A DNA stretch of 64,000 nt, from contig MCFH01000005.1 in the NCBI GenBank assembly GCA_002104945.1, forward strand, positions 1,178,001-1,242,000, read 5' to 3'. Shown here in pieces: positions 47,333-64,000 of the stretch (position 1 is its first letter; each line of letters starts with the position of its first letter). The position numbers and the translations under genes are program-made. Source of the DNA: Piromyces finnis finn (Eukaryota; Fungi; Neocallimastigomycota). Below the pieces are notes generated by a model. It ran no database searches and was not told the origin of the DNA. It was given only the letters and a program-made list of their open reading frames with translations.

Positions 47333-50266
<2,934 letters not shown>

Positions 50267-51182
50267 AAATAAAAATAATCAAATAATATTATTATTTACA
50301 ATAATTATAAACATTTTTTAATTATATATAAAATAAATAATTTAACATATGATATATGAAATGGTATTCTCAAATCAACAATGAATGTATATAATATATA
50401 TATACATAAATATATTTTGGTTTATTTTTACATTAAAATAATCCTTGTTATATTAAAATGTAGTTTGAAATTAGAAATCTTAATTCTTGAAATTTAAATT
50501 TCATAAAATTTTACATTATTATAACTTTAACATGAAAATAAATATTCATTATTACTTAAATATCTATAATACCTTTTTTTTTTTTTTCAAATTTGAAATT
50601 GAAATTAATTTTTTAAAATATAATTTTAGTAATTTAATTAAATAAATATTTTTATTTTAATTTGTCTAATTATAATCCTACTTTTTTTACAATATTATTG
50701 ATTTTTTTTAAAATTGAAATTAATTCAATATTTTAATTTCTTTTTATTATATATATGAAAAAACAAGGAAAAAAAAAATTATTTTTCATAGTTAATATAT
50801 TAGCATTGAATTGTTTTATTATAATTTTTTTATTCGTTTTATTTTTATTATTTTTTTTTATTTCTATAAATAAATTACAAGATTTTTTTTTTTTTTTTTT
50901 TTTTTTGAAAGCTTTTTGTATATTTTTTTGTGATTTGGAAAAAAAAAATAAAAATACAATTGTATTTTTTATTTTCTTTTATTATACATTTTTTGGTCTA
51001 AATATTTTATGAATTTGTGAAATAGTTGCTGATAAAAAAAATGGATAGATTATAGTAAAATAAAAGTCCTAAAAAAGTTTAATAAAAAAAATAAGTATTT
51101 ATTTATTTTTTTTTCTTTTTATAATACCTTTATTTTAGAGAGAGGAAAAAATAAAGCTTTTTTTTATTTTTATTTAAATAAT

Positions 51183-52796
51183 TTAGAATCCCTTCATAGT
51201 TTCTTCAATAACTAATCTAACTTGCTTTAAGGCAATTTCCTTCTTACCACCATCAGTCTTAACATCAATGCACTTCTTTGGTCTACCTAAAAGGTTAACA
51301 AGAGCCTTTGGAGCAATTTCTTCATAAACAACTTCCTTAGAAGCAATCTTTTCACCAGAGTAGTTGTTAATAGCTGGAAGAACGGCTTCTGGGAACTTAC
51401 CTGGGTGAGCAGTAGAAAGGCAAATAGTGTAAACTGGGTTCTTAGCATGCATCTTTTCAGCAGCAGCAACACCAACAGCAGTGTGTGGGTCAAGAACGTA
51501 GCTGGAAGACTTGCAGTGATAGTAGCGACCAATAGTTTCAGTAGTCTTTTCATCAGTAACATTGAAAGAATCGAAAAGAGTGTGAGCACGTTCAAGAACT
51601 TCAGCTGGAGCAGTGAAACCACCAGAAGTCTTTAATTGTTGCATCCATTCGGCAATGGTAGCACTGGCCTTTTCATCATCAGCAGCAGTAGCGGTAGTGC
51701 TTTCAACACGACCATCACCACGGACTAAGTACCAGATAAGACGTTCAAAGTTGGAACTGATGAGAATATCCATAGCTGGAGAAAGAGTTTGCTTAACTTC
51801 TGGTTCATTTGGACCAACCTTCTTCTTTTCGTAGGAACCAGTTTGCATGAAACGGTAAAGAATATCATTTTCGTTAGTAGCAATGCAAAGACGGTCAGCT
51901 GGAAGACCCATACGAACAGCATAGTAACCAGCTAAAATATCACCAAAGTTACCAGATGGAACAACAAATTGAATCTTTGGAAGAGTTTCTGGCTTGGTAT
52001 CAGCATTAACAGCAACATTTAACTTCTTTAATAAAGTGAAGTAAGAGTAGAAGTAGTAAACAGTTTGAGCAAGAATACGAGCCCAGTTAATAGAGTTGAT
52101 AGCACCTAATTGGTACTTGTTCTTGAATTCGGCGTCAGAGAAGAGAGCCTTAACAGTTTCTTGACAGTCATCGAAAGTACCTTCAACAGAAACATTGAAG
52201 ACATTTGGATCGAGAACAGAAGTCATTTGAGATTCTTGAATGTTACTAACACGACCCTTTGGGTGAAGAATGAAAACAGAAATGTTCTTCTTACCACGAA
52301 GACCGTAGATAGCAGCACCACCAGTATCACCACTAGTAGCACCAAGAACGGTAATACCGTCTTGCTTTTCATCTTGTTTCTTGTCCTTGTTCTTTCTAAT
52401 TAAGAAGTATTCGAAAAGATTACCTAAGAATTGAAGAGCAACATCCTTGAAAGCAAAAGTTGGACCGTGGAAAAGTTCTAAAACGTAAAGTTGGTCGTTA
52501 GTGACGTTTGGAAGTTTGTTTAATGGAGTGATGTCCTTGTCATCGAAAGTGGAGTAAGACTTTTCAATGATAGTCTTAAGATCATCATTTGGAATTTCAT
52601 TAACGTCAATGAAAAGACGAAGAACTTGGTAAGCAAGATCAGTAAATTTTAAGTTGGACCATTCAGCAATTTTTGAGAATGGAACTTTTGGAATTTCAGA
52701 TGGGATATATAAACCACCATCTGGAGCAAGACCTTGTAAAACGGCATTTTCAAAAGTAAGACCGCTAGATTGACCACGAGTACTTCTGTATCTCAT
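51183..52796 (-). CDS. THR4: Threonine synthase (PLP-dependent), intronless
   Basis: Starts MRYRSTRG...LQGLAPDGGLYIP. Contains the PLP-lysine motif ELFHGPTFAFKDVALQ plus GATSGDTGGAA, NSINWARILAQ, VPSGNFGDILAGY, TLSPAMDILISSNFER, DPHTAVG and LSTAHPGKF. Single 537-aa ORF. Confidence 0.97.
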   Translation of the reverse strand: MRYRSTRGQSSGLTFENAVLQGLAPDGGLYIPSEIPKVPFSKIAEWSNLKFTDLAYQVLRLFIDVNEIPNDDLKTIIEKSYSTFDDKDITPLNKLPNVTNDQLYVLELFHGPTFAFKDVALQFLGNLFEYFLIRKNKDKKQDEKQDGITVLGATSGDTGGAAIYGLRGKKNISVFILHPKGRVSNIQESQMTSVLDPNVFNVSVEGTFDDCQETVKALFSDAEFKNKYQLGAINSINWARILAQTVYYFYSYFTLLKKLNVAVNADTKPETLPKIQFVVPSGNFGDILAGYYAVRMGLPADRLCIATNENDILYRFMQTGSYEKKKVGPNEPEVKQTLSPAMDILISSNFERLIWYLVRGDGRVESTTATAADDEKASATIAEWMQQLKTSGGFTAPAEVLERAHTLFDSFNVTDEKTTETIGRYYHCKSSSYVLDPHTAVGVAAAEKMHAKNPVYTICLSTAHPGKFPEAVLPAINNYSGEKIASKEVVYEEIAPKALVNLLGRPKKCIDVKTDGGKKEIALKQVRLVIEETMKGF

Positions 52797-54204
52797 TTTT
52801 TAATAATATTATTATTATTGAATTTTTTTTTATGAAGGTTTATGTATTGTAGAAAACTATAAAAGTATAATTATATATAATAAAAATAAAAATAAATTAT
52901 TATCTTGTTTTATATTTATTGTATTTGTTTTTTGTATTATTTTTTTTTGTAATTTATTTATAAAATGTGGTAATTACTTTCTAAATAAAAATAAAAATGG
53001 TGGATTATATCTAATATTTTGTATATATTAAATATAAACTTTTATTATTATTTTTATTATTTAGTTTTTTTTAAAATTTTGTTAAAGAATTAAAAAAAAA
53101 AAAAAAAAAAAAAAACATATATATGAATATTAAAGATTATTTTAGGAAAAAATTTAATTGGAATCTGATATTGATAATATATTAAAATATATTGTAATAT
53201 ATTATACTATTAAAATACCATTGAATAGTTTAAAAAAATCTTTAAAAACTTTTAAAGAAAATAAATCAAAAAGTTTATAAAGGATGATTGGAAAATAAAC
53301 CTATAATAATATATGGATATAATATATTATCATTATACTGTTATTATATTGAATTTTATTATCCATTATTTCTTAATAAAAGTAAATGTATAAATAATAA
53401 TAATTTAAATAAATTTACTTATCATAACAAAAAAAAAATTTAAATAAAGCACAGCACATTTTAAAATGTTGAAAAGTGTTGAATATATATGTAAATTTGG
53501 TATAACAATTAAATTGTACTATTTAACAATAATAAGTAGGGTTATAATAAAGTTGCATGTCTCTATTATTTTCTTTTATTTATTCATTCATTTATTCATT
53601 ATTCATTCTTAATAAAAAAAATAAAAATAACAAATTAATCCACAATTTTTAAATTAATAATGATACACATGTTAAATTAAAAAATTGAATATGAAATAAA
53701 TCAAAATTTTATGTTAAAACTTTCTTATAGTTTTATTAATGTTATGGTATGGCTAGAGAACTTCCAGTACTAATTTTATTCTAATTATTTTGTTTTTTTT
53801 TTTATTTTATTTTGTATTATGTTTTTATCTTAATTTTTAATATATTATTTTTTTATATTAATTATATTATCATAAACAAATATATATATTATAAAATTTA
53901 AACAAATATATAAAAATAAATATTATGATCATACAGGAAAAATAAAAGTTAATAATTATATATATATAATATAGTAATAATAGTAGATGATAATGTGATA
54001 TATAATAAGATGTATCAACAAAAAGTTACAAATCTTATTTAATTATTAATAATATTAGTTAATAGTAGTAATAGTAATAGTATAATTACTAATTGAAAAA
54101 AAAAAAAATGTTGAAAATTATATATAGTCATATATATATTGTTCCTTCATATTTTTTGTTTTTTGTTTTTTTTTTTCAATAGTTATTAAAAATAATTACA
54201 AAGT

Positions 54205-55356
54205 TTATGATGAAAGATGTTCATTAATAAAACTAGAAAATTTCTTAATAAAACTTAATTTTTCAGATTCTTTTGGATTAATTTTGCTTTCATAGGCATC
54301 AATAGCTTCATTTAAAATTCTTAAATGATCATTAGTTATTCCTATAAGCTCCATTTGCTTTAATTTATAGAAAGCAATTAAAGCAAAAGCTTCATTTTCT
54401 GAATTATTTTCAATATAATTGTTTTCGATTTGTTTAAGTGTTGGTGACAAATCTCTAATAGCATCACATATATCATTATATTCATTAATACAATCAGGTT
54501 TATTTATTTTATTACAAAATTCGACTAAATTATTCTTCATTTGACTTTTTGGAATAATAGTTTCAACAGTCTAATATATATATTACCGTAATTATTGTAC
54601 CATATATTTAAAATAGTTTAAGGTATTTATAGATATTCATATAATAAATTGAAGTTTAATTGAAAACGATAATAATATTGAACATATATATAATTTATAT
54701 TATATATAATAAGTAATGTTAATAAATAAAAGTAAAATAAGGAAAAAAAGATATAAATATGTTATTAAAAAGTATTATCTTTTATTTTTTTAATAATCAT
54801 CAATGAAATATTATTTACTTTATGTATATATAAATACTAATTTGAATATTACCTCAATAATGATTTTTAAGGAATCAAAATCATTTTGTATTCTTTCTAA
54901 TTGAACAGAATCTGTAGTACCCTTGGAATCAATGATTTTTCCACTACGAACACTTAAAGTATTATCCCTATATGCTTTTTGAATCATTTCAAGACATTGA
55001 TTATCTAAATATTCATTTTGACCAAGTTTAAAATCAAGATCAAGATTCTGACCTAATTCAAGATCATGATTATTATTCCAACCAAATTCACCCAATGTAT
55101 CATTAACAAAAGATTCTACATTGAAAGAAATAGTAGAATCTAATTGATCAATATCAATACCTAAAGTAGAATAATTTACTTGTGGAAGTTGAGTTGGATC
55201 AACAGAGGAAATAACAGAAGGTCTTTTTTGTCTAGGAACTTTTTCTGTTTCTTGTTGGGATGGAACTTCCTTTGAAGGAAAATAGTATTCACGAAGTTTA
55301 TCAGCCTTTTTTGTCCTGTAAACTTCTTCGTCCTTTTGTTCAATTTCAACAGACAT
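54205..55356 (-). CDS. Hypothetical protein (~289 aa), 2 exons
   Basis: Exon 55356-54853 (donor GAG|GTAATA) splices in phase 0 to exon 54570-54205 (acceptor TTAG|ACT). This joins ORFs 54820-55356 and 54205-54540. Confidence 0.7.
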
Positions 55357-56446
55357 ATTTATTATTTTTTTAAAAAAAAATTATAAAAATAGGATTATTT
55401 ATTGTTTTTAACTTTTTTTTAGAGATTTTGATTTATTTTTTATTCGATTTTTCAAATATATATATAGTTATAAAAAAAAGTGTAACATAATATATAATGA
55501 TTTAATAAATATTTTCAATATTGAATGATTTTTGAAATAGTGTATTTTTTATTAATTTGTTTTTATAATCATGAATAAATAAAATAAAATAAAAAAAAGG
55601 TTGTAAAATCGTTTATAGACACATTTGCGTACATATTTATATTGTTTTAGTATTTTTAATTAAAGTTTTTCCATCAATATTTTTAAAATTCATATCCATA
55701 AAAAAAAAAAGACATAAATGGCAATAAATTTTATTATTGTTACCCGACAATAATTGTTTAATTAGATATATTAAAAAATAAAAAAAAAAAAAAAAAGTTA
55801 ACACATTTGTATTTTAAATAAAAAATAAAAATGAATTGAAGTAATATCAAAATAATAATATAATATTATTAATAATTATTTGATATAGATTATAGAATAG
55901 AGAATTTTTTTTAATTGTTTTTCTTTTTTTTAATAATTATTATTTGAAATATAACGGTTGTTTTTTATTATTATTTAAACCTTTTTAGTTTTATGATTAT
56001 AAATATAGAATATATATCATCATTGATAATTCAAAAATAGTTACATAGACTATTTTTTTTGTTTTGTTTTGTTATATATTTTATTTTCTTTTATATCTTT
56101 TTTAAATTATCAAGTATATAATTTTTTTTTTTTTTTAATTCTTAAGTTCTCTTCCATAACTATTTATTATTTTATATATTACCTAAAATATTTAAATATT
56201 ACAATAAAAATAATAACAATAATAAATGAAAGATAAAAGATATTAATATAAATTACCTTTTGCTATTATATAATGATATTTTTTTTCTTGCTTTTATTTT
56301 TAGAATTAAAAGAAGAAGAAAAAAGTTTTATTATTACAAATTTTGAATAAGTAATAATATATATAATTATATACAATTATAATAAGAATGTAATATAATT
56401 TAATTTTTTAATAAAAAAAAAAAAAAAAACATATTTAGCAAAAATG

Positions 56447-56484
<38 letters not shown>

Positions 56485-57400
56485 GTATATTAACTATTAT
56501 CTATTATAATAATAAAAAAAAAAATTCATATCCATATATATAAAATAAAGTTTAGTTATTTTTTGACTTTGTATGTCAACAAAATTTAATGAAATTAAAA
56601 TATGCTATATATAATTTGTATATATATATAGAAAAAAAAAATATGCATTAAAGAAGCATGTAAGAAAAGCCAATTTTATATATAAAAAATAAGATAATTA
56701 AAAGTTTAATATTATAAAAGAAGATTTATAAATAAACTATCAATAAAGAAAATTATTATTATAATGCATTTATATATATTCCAATATTTTTTGTTTATCA
56801 TTATTCCTAAATATGTATGATATGTATGATGTAGCAAACTGAAATTTGGTGATACTAAAAATATTAATATATTGTTTTTAATGAAATGGATTAATCTCTC
56901 TAACATAAAAATAAATTTTATAAGGGATAATTAATCTAGACTTTTCATAAAAAAAAAAAAATCACCTTTATTTATTATACTCTTGTTAATTCAAATAAAA
57001 ACAGTAAAATACTAAAAATTTTATTTCTCCATTTTAAAAATTGTATTAGAACATAAGAATAAGATTTTAAAACTTAAAAATTTGGTATAATTAACGGTAG
57101 AGAGTTAAATCTTAAATTTTATTAAAATGTATTTTTAAATCATTAAAAAAAAAAAAAAGTTTCATTTGAAATGGGTATATGTAAATAGTATAATATATAA
57201 AAAGTATAAATGGTATAATTTAAATAATGAAATAAATATGTTACATAATTTATCTAATTGTATAACTTATAATACACTTTATAATGAATAATACATTATA
57301 ATAATTCATTGATTTAATTTTTTAATCATTTATATTACCTCACTATCACCCCTTTTTAGAGTAAAAGTTTATTAAAACATTTGGTGATTTGGAGTGCTAT

Positions 57401-57595
57401 ATATAAATGACAAGTTATCAAGTTATTGTTTGTTTTTGTTGCTTTTTTTGTAACTTTAACTTTATAAATTTATTGTACGTCCATATAAACATCAAGTTAT
57501 TGGTTTTTTGTTTTGTTTTTTAGCTTTGTAGATAAATAATATCTATAAATATCAAGTTGTTATCGTTTTAACTTTTGAACAAGTATTATAAACTT
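57401..57595. repeat. Three degenerate direct repeats immediately 3' of the pPolB stop codon
   Basis: A core of TATAAA-N(1-9)-ATCAAGTT(A/G)TT followed by a T/G-rich run recurs at about 57402, 57484 and 57544. ATCAAGTTATTG is exact in the first two copies. Confidence 0.6.
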
Positions 57596-57599
57596 TTTT

Positions 57600-60173
57600 T
57601 TAACTTATAACAATAGTTTCACTAGAAAAAAATGGTTCGACAATACCAGATTCTGAAATTTTACCTTTTTCATATATTTTTCTAAAATTTATATTTTTAT
57701 TTTCTATTTTAATTTTATTATCATACGTTCTAACCCATTTCTCTGTTTGTGCTTCAATACTATCCTTTTGAAATTCTTCAAAACTAATGTCATCCATGTT
57801 TTTATAATTCAATCCACTGATTTTTTTTACTAACTTTCCATCCATATCATAATACATATACTTTTTTAATCCTCGAATATACATCTTTTTAATTTGTTTA
57901 AAATCCCATCCATCTATTAATTCATCTGACTGATTTTTATCAATATAATCCATTAACTTTTTATTTCCTTTAATAAACACTGAATCTGTATCACAATATA
58001 AAATTTGTGCATGACTATCAACTTTTAGTAATTCATTCATTCTTAGCCATAATTTAAATCTGGATTTAGCTGTTATGAAACTAATTAATTGATAACACGT
58101 TTTCGAATTTATGTAATCATCGTATAATAACCATTGCCAATCATCAAAAGCATCATAATACGTGTATTTATAAAGTTTTCTTTTATTAACCAATTCTTCA
58201 ACATTTTTACATAAAGTTCTTTGTGTCATTACAAATCTTTGACCAAAACCTCCTGTTGTTCCATTCATTAAAATTTTTGGTCCTATTTTTTCTGTTGGTG
58301 TTTTGGCTTGCCTTTTCTTTTCATACCAACTTAAAAATATTGGAGATAAATCAAGAGAATCAAATATATAAACATTTTTAATTTCTATAACATCAATATT
58401 ATTTTTCAATGCTTCATATTCAAAATTCCACATATATAACAATGTTGGTACATCATAATTTTCTGAAATCAATATACCATTTCTTTTCCTACATATTGGA
58501 GGAATCGAATAAAATGTCTTGTATTTAATAATAACATCCATGGCCCACATTACTCCTTCCTCCTCTTTTGGTATCTCATGTTGTATTCTTAATAATTTGC
58601 CTGGCGTTATGTCTTGAACTACAGACGGATACATAGAAACTTTATCGGTAACTGCAATAAAATTTTCATCATCTGATTCTACTAATCCATGATAAAACAT
58701 TTCACATCTTCCACCATGATACGTTTCAAGAAATAATGCCTTTTCAAGTAAATTATTAGGAAGATCAGTAAATGTATTGAATATCGTTTGCTTTCCAATT
58801 GAAGATATAGATGTATTCGATAAAACCCATTTATAACCATCTGGATGAATAACGGATTGACACTTAACAAGCGGCTCTAACGATTTGTTTGTAATTTCCA
58901 TTGCTTGCTTAACAATCCTAACGTCATTCATACAATATTCAATATCATCTTTATTTTTATAATCCCATATTTTATTTCTATACCAATTTTTGGGGCATTT
59001 TCCATTAATCCAATCTTTATGCCCTTTATTGATTTTTAAACCATAGACTTCTGGTAATTTTTCAACAGGAAGTGAAAGTAATAATAAGGAATCATAAAAT
59101 ATCAAATTTTCACCATATCTTAATGTTTTAATTTGAGTACCATTACAAGCAATAAGATCATATTCATTCTTTTTACCAATATCAAAGTTTTGAATCATTG
59201 ACTTTAATAATAATATATGTTCAACTTTACCACCATTATGAGAATAACAATATACCAATCCTTTTTTTGACAAAATTTTAACATAATTAAAAAACATCTT
59301 AAAATTTCTAAATGATTGTTCAGTAGTTTCACCTTTTCTCACTGTAATTGCACATATTAAATTTGAATCTTTTGAAATTATTTCATCATCATTTAAAACT
59401 TCATATGACCATTCACAGTCAAACCAAACAATTGCATACACATTTCTCTCAATTTTTTCATTTTTCTTAAATAAACTTTTTATTTTAATGTTATCTCTAT
59501 CATCAGTAAAATCCGGGATACCTTTATAAATATAACCTATATGACAACCAATAGAATATAGCATAATATTATTATTAAAATCTTCATCTTTAATATCTTC
59601 TAATTGCTTTTCAGTTGATAATATTTTTACACTTCTTTTATATTTATTTTCTACCTGTTCAATTTCACAATAAAAATCATCATATTTTTTATGCATCAAG
59701 CTAAAATTCTTTAATTCACCAGCAGATTTACATCTTAACTCTGGATTCATATATTTAATTGATGAAATAATCAAACACTTATTTATTGACCTTGTAAAAC
59801 ATAAGGTATAGATTTTATTATTTATTCTTTTTGTTAACATAAACTCTTTGCCTTTTCCATTCCAAGGTTTTATTGCTTTAATACCAACTAGCACTGGTTC
59901 AACTTCACTGTATTCAATTGCATCTCCATATTCATCATAAACAACATTTTCAAAATCATTATGTATCGAATCCCAAAATGATCTTTTTACAACAGTAAAA
60001 TACGCACCAGATAATGATCTTCTAAATACATATCGTACTTCAAACATTCCGCTTTCATAATCATATTCAGAATTTATCGTTCTAAAAATATCAAAACTAT
60101 CTTCAATTTCTTCATTATTACTAACTCTGAAATTAGTATATTCATTATTTATTATATCGGTTTCATCACTCAT
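57600..60173 (-). CDS. Protein-primed family B DNA polymerase (linear plasmid / Polinton / adenovirus type), intact and intronless, 857 aa
   Basis: Motifs occur in the expected order: ExoI WFDCEW (~D252), ExoII YSHNGGKVEH (~H312), FYDSLLLLSLPVEKL...YGL...KG, ExoIII EYCMNDV, YHGGRCE, motif A DKVSMYPS (~D510), motif B KILMNGTTGGFGQR (~K633), motif C YCDTDS (~726-731) and GLKKY. A ~250-aa N-terminal extension precedes ExoI. Confidence 0.93.
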   Translation of the reverse strand: MSDETDIINNEYTNFRVSNNEEIEDSFDIFRTINSEYDYESGMFEVRYVFRRSLSGAYFTVVKRSFWDSIHNDFENVVYDEYGDAIEYSEVEPVLVGIKAIKPWNGKGKEFMLTKRINNKIYTLCFTRSINKCLIISSIKYMNPELRCKSAGELKNFSLMHKKYDDFYCEIEQVENKYKRSVKILSTEKQLEDIKDEDFNNNIMLYSIGCHIGYIYKGIPDFTDDRDNIKIKSLFKKNEKIERNVYAIVWFDCEWSYEVLNDDEIISKDSNLICAITVRKGETTEQSFRNFKMFFNYVKILSKKGLVYCYSHNGGKVEHILLLKSMIQNFDIGKKNEYDLIACNGTQIKTLRYGENLIFYDSLLLLSLPVEKLPEVYGLKINKGHKDWINGKCPKNWYRNKIWDYKNKDDIEYCMNDVRIVKQAMEITNKSLEPLVKCQSVIHPDGYKWVLSNTSISSIGKQTIFNTFTDLPNNLLEKALFLETYHGGRCEMFYHGLVESDDENFIAVTDKVSMYPSVVQDITPGKLLRIQHEIPKEEEGVMWAMDVIIKYKTFYSIPPICRKRNGILISENYDVPTLLYMWNFEYEALKNNIDVIEIKNVYIFDSLDLSPIFLSWYEKKRQAKTPTEKIGPKILMNGTTGGFGQRFVMTQRTLCKNVEELVNKRKLYKYTYYDAFDDWQWLLYDDYINSKTCYQLISFITAKSRFKLWLRMNELLKVDSHAQILYCDTDSVFIKGNKKLMDYIDKNQSDELIDGWDFKQIKKMYIRGLKKYMYYDMDGKLVKKISGLNYKNMDDISFEEFQKDSIEAQTEKWVRTYDNKIKIENKNINFRKIYEKGKISESGIVEPFFSSETIVIS

Positions 60174-60909
60174 TTTTGGTTTATATTATAGAAAAATGCA
60201 TTTATATATAATATTAATAAAATTATTTATTATATTTTATTATAATTTAAAAACAAATTTAATAATCTTTAAAATATGTATTTTATTCATTTATATTAAG
60301 TATTTAAAAATAATAATGGTTAATGGTTAATGTTAATGCTTTTTTTTTTTATTTTTTTTTTTTTTAATTATTAAATAATTCATTCAATTTAATATGTCAC
60401 AGGCAAATTATTAAAAAGCAAAATAAAATAATAATTAGAATAAAAAAATAATATGAAAATTTATTTACATTTTCTCTAGTTTATTTATTTAATTAAATTT
60501 AAATAATAATTTAATATAAAATAAAATAAAAATATTATTTTAATTTTAATTAGATAAAATGCTTTTGTTATAAAATAAAGTTTTTTATTCAGTAGTAGCC
60601 CTTAACACTTTGACAGATTTTTTTTTTAATTACAAAGATGAAAATTTTCAAAGAATACCATATGTATATATGTATATGAATTATGGCTAATGTTGAACCT
60701 GCCGCCGAGATTAATACAAAGAAATTAACTAATGCATAATACATATAAAGACAATTGTTTATTAATAAAAATTAATTCTAACCCATTTAATTTCAATATT
60801 CTAACAATTCGTATTAAATGGTCAATTATGATGTGTTTAATTATGCTAACTTTATTAATGAATAATATAATATTAAGAGTTACATTTTTTTTAATAACAT
60901 GACTTGTTT

Positions 60910-62270
60910 ATTAATGCAATGCAATGTATATGGCTAATATATACATGGGATATTCACACATTTTAACACTTCCCCTCAAAACCTAATTATTCTTAGATAT
61001 AATTTGGTTTATTGGTGAATCTGTGTATTTACATATTTTGATAATCATTATTTAAATCTATATTTTCTAATATTAAACTCTTTAATTTTGATTATTCTAA
61101 TAGATAAATTCCATAAAATTATAACATATCCAATTAATTTCTTTTATGTAAAACCATCCAAATAATTCAGATTTTAATATAACTAAGAATAAATATCATT
61201 AAATATTATTCCTCCTAAAACTAACTTTCTTTATATATCCATAATTAATTTTTAATTTATGATTCATGATATAATTATATCATTTGTGATGAAAACCTTT
61301 TTCTTGATGGAAGATATTATATTATCTATTAATTGTGAATTGCTTTTAGGTCTTACATTATATTTGAAATATTCGCTTTATAATTGTAGCGATAACTATT
61401 TTATAATATTAAATATTTTAGGGTGCACAGGTTTGTTAACAAACATGAAACTTTTCTTTTCATATTTGTTATTTTCAATATTTTAAGTTTTCTTTTATAT
61501 TTTTTTTTTTTTCTTTATATATTTGCTTTATGCAATTATTTCGGAGTCTCATTAGAGCGTTATTATTAAAGTTTTAATTTTCTATAATTTGACATTCAGT
61601 ATTTATATATTTTGTAAATCTTATTTAATAATTAAATGATTTCTTCAATATTTCACTTCATACTTCCTTATTCTTCCCCTTAAAATTCAAATATTATAAT
61701 TAAATTTTGGATTTTCATAGATGTACATTATTAGTGTAGTAGTATTTATTTCATATTCTTGATGAAATTTCATTTTTAATAACTCATATATTGTTATATA
61801 AGTCTATAATATTACATCTTGCAATCATATTACAATCCCATTACGTGAAAAATACTTCAGATTTTATATCATTCTACTACATTATAGCAACACTTTTATT
61901 TACTCTTTGGTTTTATATCTATATTAAACTGTAGTAATTCTTATGGTTAACTCATTAGTTTCCGTCAATTAAATTATAATTGCATTCTTCAGCTTAGCAA
62001 TAATTGATGCTTTTTGATAAACAATAACTTTATGATTGAATATATTGTACAACATCTTTTTATATATCTATCTTCTTAAATGCTAATGAATTCAAGTTTA
62101 TTTTATTCTAAGAATGATATCTAATAGAATAGAAATTTATATTATTATATGCTTTAAATAATTTTTTTATGTGATTTTATATGGAATTTATATGTAATAT
62201 ATGGCTTATACATTAATGTAATATAATGTATATGGTAAATGTATACATGGAATATTCACATATTTTAACA
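60910..62270 (-). mobile_element. Decayed, internally deleted Ty1/copia LTR retrotransposon
   Basis: Direct repeats at 60910-60968 and 62212-62270 match at 51/59 and both begin TGTTAAAAT on the minus strand. A polypurine tract TTGAGGGGAAG abuts the 3' copy. A stop-riddled RNase H-like remnant (...HK*YNYIMNHKLKINYGYIRKLV...NYLDGFT*K) lies at about 61130-61350. The low-coordinate ends of the LTRs are unresolved. Confidence 0.75.
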
Positions 62271-64000
62271 TTATTGACCTTTTAAATTTTTTGATTTGTT
62301 TATTTAAATTAGTTAATTAGAATGATATTTTGAGTTAATTGTAATGATAAACTTTATCATTTTATTAATAAATACTTTTCTATTTTATGCAATATAATAA
62401 AGTATTGCTACTTATAATAACTTTTTATATATTTTATTCCTGAAATGAGAATTGCCTTTACAGAAAGACTATTTAATTATTTGATATCAAAATTTGTTAT
62501 TCCTTATATCCTGAAATAAAAAATATATATATTTGTTATTTAATTAAAAAAAAAATAATAATAATAATAATAAACGATTTATTTTTATTATTAAAACTAT
62601 TATAATTTGTTTTCATTTAATATATCTTTGATCGTAAAGATAAAAAACACTTTTTTTTATTTTCGAATAAAGCTTTGAATAGTATTTTTTATTATTTTTT
62701 TTTTTAATTTATTATTTATGTATATTTATATAAAATTATTAATGTATATTCATTTTTTTAAATGAAAGCATTCGTTATTATTATTTTTTTAAAAGAATAA
62801 AAGTAAGGAAAATACACTTTTAAAACAAGCAAATAAATAAAGTAAATAAATAAATAAATAAATAAAAAGCTAACTTTTTAACTGAAATATACAATAATTA
62901 TTTTCGTTTTTTTCTTATCATTAAAAAATCTTTACTTAATATATTGAATTATAGTTATTTAATATAATTTAAATATATTTAAAAAAAACAATTTGAAAAG
63001 GTTAGAATTTAAAAAGTTTTGAATTTCATTAATAATTAAATACTTTTTTTTATTAGTACAATATTACAATAGTAATAGCCATAATACACGGCATTTGTGT
63101 AATTTCAAAAAAGGTAAGAATGATTATTTTATATCTTAATATATAAAATATAAAATATTTTGTTAACCTAACCTTTTTAAATTTAACATTTTTGAAATAA
63201 CTTTTAACCTATTATTTAATAATCTTATGTAATTCCTATACATTCAAAAATGGTATACCATTTTTAATAGTAATAAATGAAATAAATATTATTAAAAGTA
63301 AAATACAATTATTTATACTCATATATAGTTTAATATAATTAAAAATACACAAAGTTGTATATTATATTATTAATATTATTAAATATGCAAATTTCTGCAT
63401 GAATAATATTAATATTTATGCATATTTATTAATGTTTCATAATCTTATTTTGAAAATACTTGTTTTAAACTTTTTTAAAAAAATCAACTTTTTTTTTTTA
63501 ATTAAAATAATGATTTCTTTTTTTTTTTTTTTTTGAGTCCAAAAAAGACGAAACATAAATCATGAAAATGAATACTTTTTTTTTTTTTGAAATAATATTT
63601 TAAAAATATATTAATATTTATAAAAAATGAAAAACAAAGATTTATATATTTTAACTGATATATATTTTTTCTTTCTTTTTTTTTAAAAAAAAGTTATGTT
63701 ATAAATTATAATAATAATATTTTAATGTACTTAATAAAACTTTGCAATCAGTAGATATACATTGTTATATATAATCTAAATTAAATATATTTACATATTA
63801 TTATTATGATATAAATAAGAACATAAAATATATAGTAATGTTTTTTATTATTATTTTATTATAACTTTTTTTTTTTATTTTTTATTCCTTAAAAAGAGCT
63901 ATTTTTTTTAAAAATTTCTTTTTAATCTTTTTTTTAAATAGTACAAAATAAATTAAAAAATTGGAAAATTTTTAATTTTTATATTAAGATTATAATATTG

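Follow-up and report, generated by a model that had tools for sequence, protein, structure and literature searches.

A 64,000-nucleotide stretch of the genome of the anaerobic gut fungus Piromyces finnis (contig MCFH01000005.1 of assembly GCA_002104945.1, positions 1,178,001 to 1,242,000 of the forward strand), hereafter called the window, carries an intact gene whose product, by its motifs and predicted fold, is a protein-primed-type family B DNA polymerase (pPolB). We propose, at roughly even odds (a probability of about 0.5), that this gene was captured into the chromosome from a small linear DNA replicon, ~4 kb in size and without a capsid. The proposal draws on the intact open reading frame (ORF), the fold class of its product, the conservation of its residues, a clade of relatives and the sizes of their contigs, a second copy in P. 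finnis, and the selection that both copies have experienced.

The polymerase gene and its predicted domains

The gene is an ORF of 857 codons at positions 57600-60173 on the minus strand, which reads in the standard code with neither stop nor intron. Its parts, with the evidence for each in brackets, are as follows.

57600..60173, minus strand: intact protein-primed-type family B polymerase gene (ORF, alignment, AlphaFold model and fold searches)
59850..60146, minus strand: predicted PRD1-like terminal-protein domain, residues 10-108, ending in G106-x-G108 (model secondary structure, conservation and the published fold description)
59928..59930, minus strand: Tyr82, the predicted nucleotide-linking (priming) residue (kept as Tyr in 27/31; position as in Krupovic 2024)
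59520..59849, minus strand: predicted vOTU-like cysteine protease, residues 109-218 (Cys/His conservation, model topology and the published architecture)
58878..59441, minus strand: 3'-5' exonuclease domain, residues 245-432, with D252/E254, E318 and Y413/D417 invariant (alignment and fold search)
57603..58877, minus strand: phi29-like polymerase domain, residues 433-857, containing motifs A to C plus KxY (alignment, PDB profile match and fold search)

In the alignment of 31 family members, the exonuclease residues listed above are invariant (31/31), and so are the polymerase residues D510-x2-S513-x-Y515, K633-x3-N637-x3-G641 and D728-T-D730. Counted by position, the 15 catalytic or motif positions and K770 are kept in 31/31, and Y772 in 29/31. 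Exonuclease motif II is represented by E318 (59220-59222, minus strand), which is Glu in all 31 aligned members. The canonical motif II usually carries Asp, and the Glu is possibly a signature of the clade as far as the alignment goes.

When used alone, the query had no match in Pfam and nothing meaningful among PDB sequences. On the other hand, 17 of the 31 family members matched Pfam DNA_pol_B_2, the ESM Atlas grouped the query with DNA_pol_B_2 clusters (feature score 0.98), and a profile of the family found phi29 polymerase as its best match among PDB sequences (E 3.6e-13). A tblastn search against plasmids and phages returned only weak matches to bacterial and archaeal pPolBs, Bacillus phage and plasmid polymerases included (23-29% identity, best E 1e-8).

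The AlphaFold model built from 31 sequences had a predicted local distance difference test score (pLDDT) of 87.5 and a predicted template modelling score (pTM) of 0.88, while a model built from six sequences was poor (pLDDT 52). The 31-sequence model was superposed on phi29 polymerase with a Z of 27.4 and a root-mean-square deviation of 3.0, with 516 of the 571 phi29 residues aligned, compared with a Z of at most 13.3 for RNA-primed family B polymerases. The coverage of this alignment suggests that the terminal protein regions TPR1 and TPR2 are present as insertions. In BFVD, the top matches were pPolBs of eukaryotic bidna-like and adintovirus type, which aligned across >1,000 columns (10-13% identity, E 1e-33 to 1e-30, TMq 0.56-0.61). 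Judged by motifs and modelled fold, the ORF product is a protein-primed-type family B polymerase, for which priming activity is predicted.

An earlier note, made from the letters of the window, had described an uninterrupted 857-codon pPolB gene with the full set of exonuclease and polymerase motifs. The same ORF was recovered here, its motif set is complete, and the phi29 comparison agrees with the protein class. The profile check against DNA_pol_B_2 that the note had suggested gave a match for those 17 of 31 family members but not for the query itself.

Eukaryotic pPolBs have been described as carrying two N-terminal domains (Krupovic et al. 2024, 10.1101/2024.03.18.585575). A PRD1-like terminal protein (TP) comes first, its linking Ser or Tyr placed between helix 2 and strand 4, near a Gly or Pro, and it is followed by a vOTU protease, which has an intact Cys/His pair in Polintons, mavirus and cytoplasmic plasmids, is inactivated in adenovirids and bidnavirids, and is absent from mitochondrial plasmids (10.1101/2024.03.18.585575). 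In our model, residues 13-101 run strand-helix-strand-strand-helix-strand, the same order of elements as in the published TP. Tyr82 lies at the low-confidence end of helix 2 (pLDDT below 50 at residues 80-88), just ahead of the last strand and with Gly directly after it. G106 and G108 are conserved in 24/31 and 29/31 members, respectively, and G106-x-G108 is a possible cleavage site. In the second domain, Cys133 (59775-59777) opens a helix and is kept in 30/31, and His211 (59541-59543) opens a strand and is kept in 29/31. The retention of Tyr82 (27/31), Cys133 and His211 in proteins with 19-38% identity is what one would expect of polymerases that still rely on protein priming and self-cleavage.

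The fold searches with the whole model aligned residues ~227-831 only, a part outside the N-terminal domains, and there was no OTU or LF/PAD chain among their matches. An Atlas search with the N-terminal part returned only clusters without a name (score 0.90), and the N-terminal profile of the family had no significant match among 105 other polymerases (best independent E-value 0.038). TP and vOTU identity and activity are thus assigned as predictions, from topology, position and conservation. Among the relatives, P0052, P0054, P0055, P0059 and P0060 carry N-terminal extensions of 150-400 aa ahead of the TP-like domain; P0054, which is found on contigs of 27-38 kb, may be part of a bigger element or of a chromosome.

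A clade of relatives and the sizes of their contigs

A profile search over 1.84 billion representatives yielded 28 matches at E<1e-30, 27 of them 828-1,240 aa long (P0068 was added to the family). Beyond the family the score dropped steeply, and the next long matches, all weaker than 1e-21, were other pPolBs. A tree was built from 82 rows and 475 exonuclease-polymerase columns, with 32 family rows, 20 long other matches and 30 of the 84 shorter ones. The family together with P0072 (33 rows) formed one side of a branch with an SH-aLRT support of 98. Within the family, the window gene and a second P. finnis copy group with the P0009 cluster (support 100), the closest relative outside the P. finnis pair at 70% identity; this group is sister to P0005 (support 99), sits on a long stem of 0.53, and is nested among other family members, which are 19-38% identical to the query. 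Based on sequence comparison, we consider these ~30 divergent polymerases a distinct clade. The clade is apparently undescribed, as a literature search, with most subscription papers outside its reach, found no description of the gene or the clade.

The relatives were seen as protein records and contig sizes alone. Contig sizes were collected for 14 of the ~30 clusters of the family, the P. finnis/P0009 clade not counted; most of the 14 were top scorers, and one 508-aa partial protein was omitted. We found that 21 of the 26 full-length relatives (11 of the 14 clusters) were on contigs of 3.4-4.9 kb, with a median of 3.9 kb and a median of 1.24 kb beyond the ORF. The remaining five comprised two contigs of ORF length, one of 5.4 kb, and two, both of the cluster P0054, of 27 and 38 kb. 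One cluster alone had six full-length records on contigs of 3.5-4.2 kb. As a rough control, among non-genome contigs recorded for either of two host genes (9 genome-assembly rows omitted), 15 of 20 exceeded their ORF by at most 480 bp. Because the contig size stays narrow across proteins that are only 19-38% identical, the data suggest a unit-length element of ~4 kb.

Contigs of ~4 kb would suit equally well the segment of a multipartite small DNA virus, and the window gene could then be an endogenised polymerase segment in the style of Vesanto virus or bidnaviruses, with the capsid genes on other segments. The segments of Drosophila Vesanto virus are 3.3-5.8 kb long, have inverted repeats, and several of them encode a PolB (PMC8363768), so that their size is similar to that of the contigs described above. 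Bidna-like polymerases are also the best structural matches of our model. However, these polymerases are longer (~1,040-1,110 aa) and only 11-15% identical, the hosts of bidnaviruses and Vesanto virus are insects, and the Vesanto polymerase itself ranked 26th in one search and was absent from 50 BFVD rows. Furthermore, the vOTU domain is inactivated in bidnavirids according to the domain survey cited above, whereas its Cys/His pair is retained in this clade, and no relative was found in scans of IMG/VR. We therefore regard a virus segment as an unlikely source of the window gene.

The second copy, selection and the flanking DNA

A second intact copy, ORX42405.1 (BCR36DRAFT_416149), is known as a protein record only. 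Its P. finnis contig, 291,490 bp long, is not the 1,372,137-bp contig that bears the window copy. The two proteins are 88% identical. The idea that ORX42405.1 is an orthologue from another species was rejected, as both copies are in P. finnis. The divergence is uneven along the protein, with 77% identity in the N-terminal domains and 93-94% in the exonuclease and polymerase domains. Columns were counted as conserved when 70% or more of the 28 remaining family members agreed, and the copies differed at 1 of 106 conserved columns and at 95 of 746 others (Fisher p 5e-5). In neutral simulations (n=1,000), only 0.2% reached 47 amino-acid changes without a stop. Since the changes avoid conserved columns and so few simulations stay free of stops, the comparison indicates that both lineages have been under purifying selection since their split, whether they then belonged to a free element or were already chromosomal.

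As far as the assembly and the sampled words of sequencing runs show, an assembly chimera or a contaminant is hardly credible. The gene lies on a 1.37-Mb contig with ordinary host genes adjoining, a second diverged copy is on a different large contig of the same species, and the stretch shares 0.53-0.98 of sampled words with four runs of three further studies that carry the same organism label. No RNA run was listed with the stretch, which has no bearing on expression.

Selection on both copies bears on a further explanation, domestication, which has the same origin as a captured replicon and differs in where selection acted: after one old capture in an ancestor of the Piromyces lineage, the host would have retained and duplicated the gene for use as a nuclear polymerase in strand displacement or repair. 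The presence of two intact copies in one species, both under purifying selection, the lack of element ends or partner genes nearby, the host-like codon use, the long stem branch followed by short branches, and the P0009 cluster on longer contigs than most relatives are in line with domestication. A precedent, compared by description, is found in Entamoeba histolytica, an anaerobic gut eukaryote with several intact stand-alone family B2 polymerase genes, four of which are reported without associated integrase, protease or ATPase; the B2 polymerases derive from Polintons and are ~85% identical to the polymerase domain of an E. invadens Polinton (PMC3511435). Yet Tyr82, Cys133 and His211, which are predicted to serve protein priming and not chromosomal repair, are kept in both P. 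finnis copies, and the gene has no introns. In addition, none of the 5 matches (7,988 candidates scored) is named as a homolog from Neocallimastix, Anaeromyces or Piromyces sp. E2, while both left-hand host genes of the window have records in Neocallimastix and Anaeromyces, on contigs of one shared length in each (636,446 and 15,011, respectively). The record of the window copy also comes from the NCBI source only, whereas its neighbours have annotated-protein sources as well. Domestication is thus possible but, in our judgment, rather unlikely.

The DNA around the gene was searched for other parts of an element. There was no ORF for an integrase, ATPase, capsid or RNA polymerase in 48000-64000, and the left flank (55498-57599), read through in six frames, had no Pfam match. 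Searches for terminal inverted repeats (TIRs) and target-site duplications around the ORF were negative, and repeats across the ORF, inverted or direct, did not score above 14 control AT-rich segments, with the best inverted match being poly-A (22.1 bits, compared with 18.3-27.3 in the 14 controls). ORF, Pfam and repeat searches thus agree with the earlier note, which had seen no such genes or TIRs in the flanks. Its description of the gene as stand-alone holds at the locus, but the gene is not the only copy in the species, as the 88% identical second one shows. The neighbours of the gene are as follows.

54205..55356, minus strand: left host neighbour outside the element, a gene of two exons whose 289-aa product is conserved in Neocallimastigomycota (ORFs and homolog search)
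60884..62270, strand not assigned: right neighbour, a decayed remnant resembling a long terminal repeat (LTR) element (78%-identical 85-nt direct repeat)

After splicing, the left neighbour encodes P. finnis BCR36DRAFT_344807. Its ORFs have no Pfam match, and of its 14 homolog matches all 4 with names are from Neocallimastigomycota, or else the matches are unnamed NCBI records. The LTR-like remnant is heavily decayed and lies 700 bp upstream of the polymerase start; its direct repeat (60884-60968 and 62186-62270) spans 85 nt with 78% identity, and its stop-riddled interior had no Pfam match in three minus-strand frames. The earlier note had called this neighbour a copia element full of stops: the decay and the direct repeat are confirmed, but the copia identity, although plausible, is not. 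At ~57410-57570, less than 200 bp beyond the polymerase stop codon, a short motif was seen by eye to recur in three imperfect copies, in a stretch with a GC content of 0.19-0.20, compared with 0.10-0.13 in host intergenic DNA; this stretch could be the remnant of an element end. Further to the left, 51183-52796 (minus strand) is an intronless threonine synthase gene with strong codon bias, a GC content at third codon positions (GC3) of 0.30 and no ATA codon, which falls in the same 90% cluster as its Neocallimastix and Anaeromyces orthologues. At ~47445-50266 (plus strand) there is a receptor-like gene with a class C G-protein-coupled receptor domain (7tm_3, E 5e-11), ahead of which is a weak match to a bacterial-type solute-binding domain (E 0.001).

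Known systems and a proposed replication cycle

The predicted order TP, vOTU with intact Cys/His, exonuclease and palm is that of the pPolBs of Polintons (Mavericks) and adintoviruses (10.1101/2024.03.18.585575), and an adintovirus polymerase is among the top fold matches of our model. Unlike in Polintons, the window polymerase is compact (857 aa), and its relatives are on contigs of ~4 kb compared with 15-20 kb. With integrase, capsid, ATPase and protease genes not found in 48000-64000 and no TIRs around the ORF, the locus does not qualify as a Polinton. In a 2026 preprint, the pPolBs in the multi-replicase examples pair with DDE integrases, unlike at the window locus (10.64898/2026.10.13.758929).

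Fungal virus-like elements (VLEs), such as pGKL1/2 and those of Coemansia and Cunninghamella, have the capsid-less lifestyle proposed here and, as is predicted for the window gene, a TP-fused pPolB with an active vOTU; members bearing a DNA polymerase (DNAP) start at 3.9 kb, and occasional nuclear capture is reported (10.1101/2025.10.13.682091). The window locus differs in that it has no YKP housekeeping, chitinase or toxin genes and is known here as a chromosomal copy. The likeness is drawn from published descriptions. VLEs of 3.9 kb upward have been found in Mucoromycota and Zoopagomycota, and for zoosporic fungi the available part of that TBLASTN survey, made with VLE DNAPs, gives one Kappamyces contig only (Heneghan et al. 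2025, 10.1101/2025.10.13.682091).

Could the window gene be the sole survivor of a larger element of known type, be it a Polinton, a Polinton-like virus or a fungal VLE killer or helper plasmid? The predicted TP-vOTU-exonuclease-polymerase architecture is shared with Polintons and cytoplasmic plasmids, P0054 is on contigs of 27-38 kb, and, as DNAP-bearing VLE contigs of Cunninghamella start at 3.9 kb, the ~4-kb contigs could be helper-dependent cryptic VLEs. Against this, the flanks contain no such gene or TIR, and the family (E<1e-30) is separated by a clear score gap from the next long pPolBs (weaker than 1e-21). In addition, VLEs in zoosporic fungi are limited to the Kappamyces contig in the survey above, and P. 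finnis, screened in a survey of pPolBs, is not among its hosts of mavirus-related elements (pMVREs) in the available part (PMC13215967). The 120 nt upstream of the start contain 0 matches to ATNTGA. This sequence is the upstream conserved sequence (UCS) promoter motif of pGKL-type VLEs. In our view, a remnant of a larger known element is very unlikely.

Like the proposed replicon, linear mitochondrial plasmids are capsid-less linear DNA with a TP-fused pPolB. Their polymerases have no vOTU (D2) domain (Krupovic et al. 2024), while the window polymerase has a second N-terminal domain with conserved Cys/His, predicted to be vOTU-like, and no ORF for a phage-type RNA polymerase is nearby. These differences agree with the earlier note, which had considered a mitochondrial-plasmid source unlikely. 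The pMVREs and transpovirons are small pPolB elements, some of them capsid-less in fungi, that are tied to giant viruses (PMC13215967). The pMVREs lose most of the exonuclease, whereas that of the window polymerase is complete and invariant, and P. finnis was screened but is not named among pMVRE hosts in the available part of the report (Wei et al. 2026, PMC13215967). The supplement of the same report has six P. finnis polymerase entries of the nucleocytoplasmic large DNA virus (NCLDV) type; these are NCLDV-type fragments and were rejected as records of the window gene. Taken together, the tested features set the locus apart from mitochondrial plasmids, bidnaviruses and mavirus-type elements, and the mode of action predicted for the polymerase is that of the replicases of Polintons and yeast VLEs.

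Several points weigh against a captured ~4-kb replicon. The window copy has no TIR or other element sequence in its flanks, and the GC3 of the ORF is host-like (0.16, compared with 0.13-0.21 in five neighbouring host ORFs and 0.30 in the threonine synthase), so that the ORF is not marked as foreign. The TP and vOTU domains are predicted from the model, the part aligned in the fold searches being residues ~227-831. P0054 is on contigs of 27-38 kb, and the P0009 cluster, the closest outside relative, is on contigs of 4.6-7.9 kb. The ~4-kb contigs themselves could be virus segments, collapsed multi-copy chromosomal repeats, gene-sized chromosomes or long transcripts, and locus scans of metagenome, viral and genome contig collections found no relative. 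In the tree, the outgroups include no named VLE, Polinton or adenovirus polymerases, and the stem of 0.53 could mark a change of role.

Regardless, we favour the captured replicon and infer for the free linear element, its ends and its route of integration the following cycle. The N-terminal domain would be linked via Tyr82 to the first nucleotide at the element end, a terminal repeat, and the vOTU domain would cut the terminal protein free near G106-x-G108. The phi29-like exonuclease-polymerase would then copy the molecule by processive strand displacement with no need for helicase or primase, while for transcription the element would depend on the host nucleus, on a helper element or on a giant virus. 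With no integrase found, pieces of the element would have entered the chromosome passively via host repair. In P. finnis, capture would have occurred at least twice, or once followed by duplication, and the replicating element would have been the main target of the purifying selection seen between the copies.

Among the origins that the earlier note had offered, an uncharacterised linear element or a minimal self-synthesising element fits best. The note had also called the endogenisation recent, for which we found no evidence, as no element ends survive around the ORF. Its overall reading is supported in part, and its host group, the anaerobic gut fungi, was right; the second copy, the predicted TP/vOTU N-terminus and the clade of ~30 members on ~4-kb contigs had escaped it.

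If the clade of ~30 compact TP-vOTU-pPolBs on contigs of unit size is what it appears to be, it would represent a branch of protein-primed replicons that has been overlooked. Through its two copies, P. finnis is the only named host of the clade, and it belongs to a phylum without linear plasmids or VLEs in the literature examined. More tentatively, there may be an undescribed and widespread class of ~4-kb eukaryotic linear replicons, in which one polyprotein (TP, protease and proofreading polymerase) would account for nearly all replication functions, capsid, integrase and RNA polymerase being absent, and which would have anaerobic gut fungi as hosts, with at least two captures in P. finnis. 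If so, these would rank with the smallest protein-primed replicons known and might be satellites of the giant viruses that have left NCLDV fossils in the same P. finnis genome (PMC7017919). Should the gene have been domesticated instead, it would be a rare nuclear pPolB retained by a fungus. The Tyr, the Cys/His pair and the G-x-G motif, all unusually well conserved, offer a direct test case for the model of linking residue and vOTU cleavage. An orthogonal replication system for anaerobic fungi, comparable in kind to OrthoRep and of biotechnological interest, could follow.

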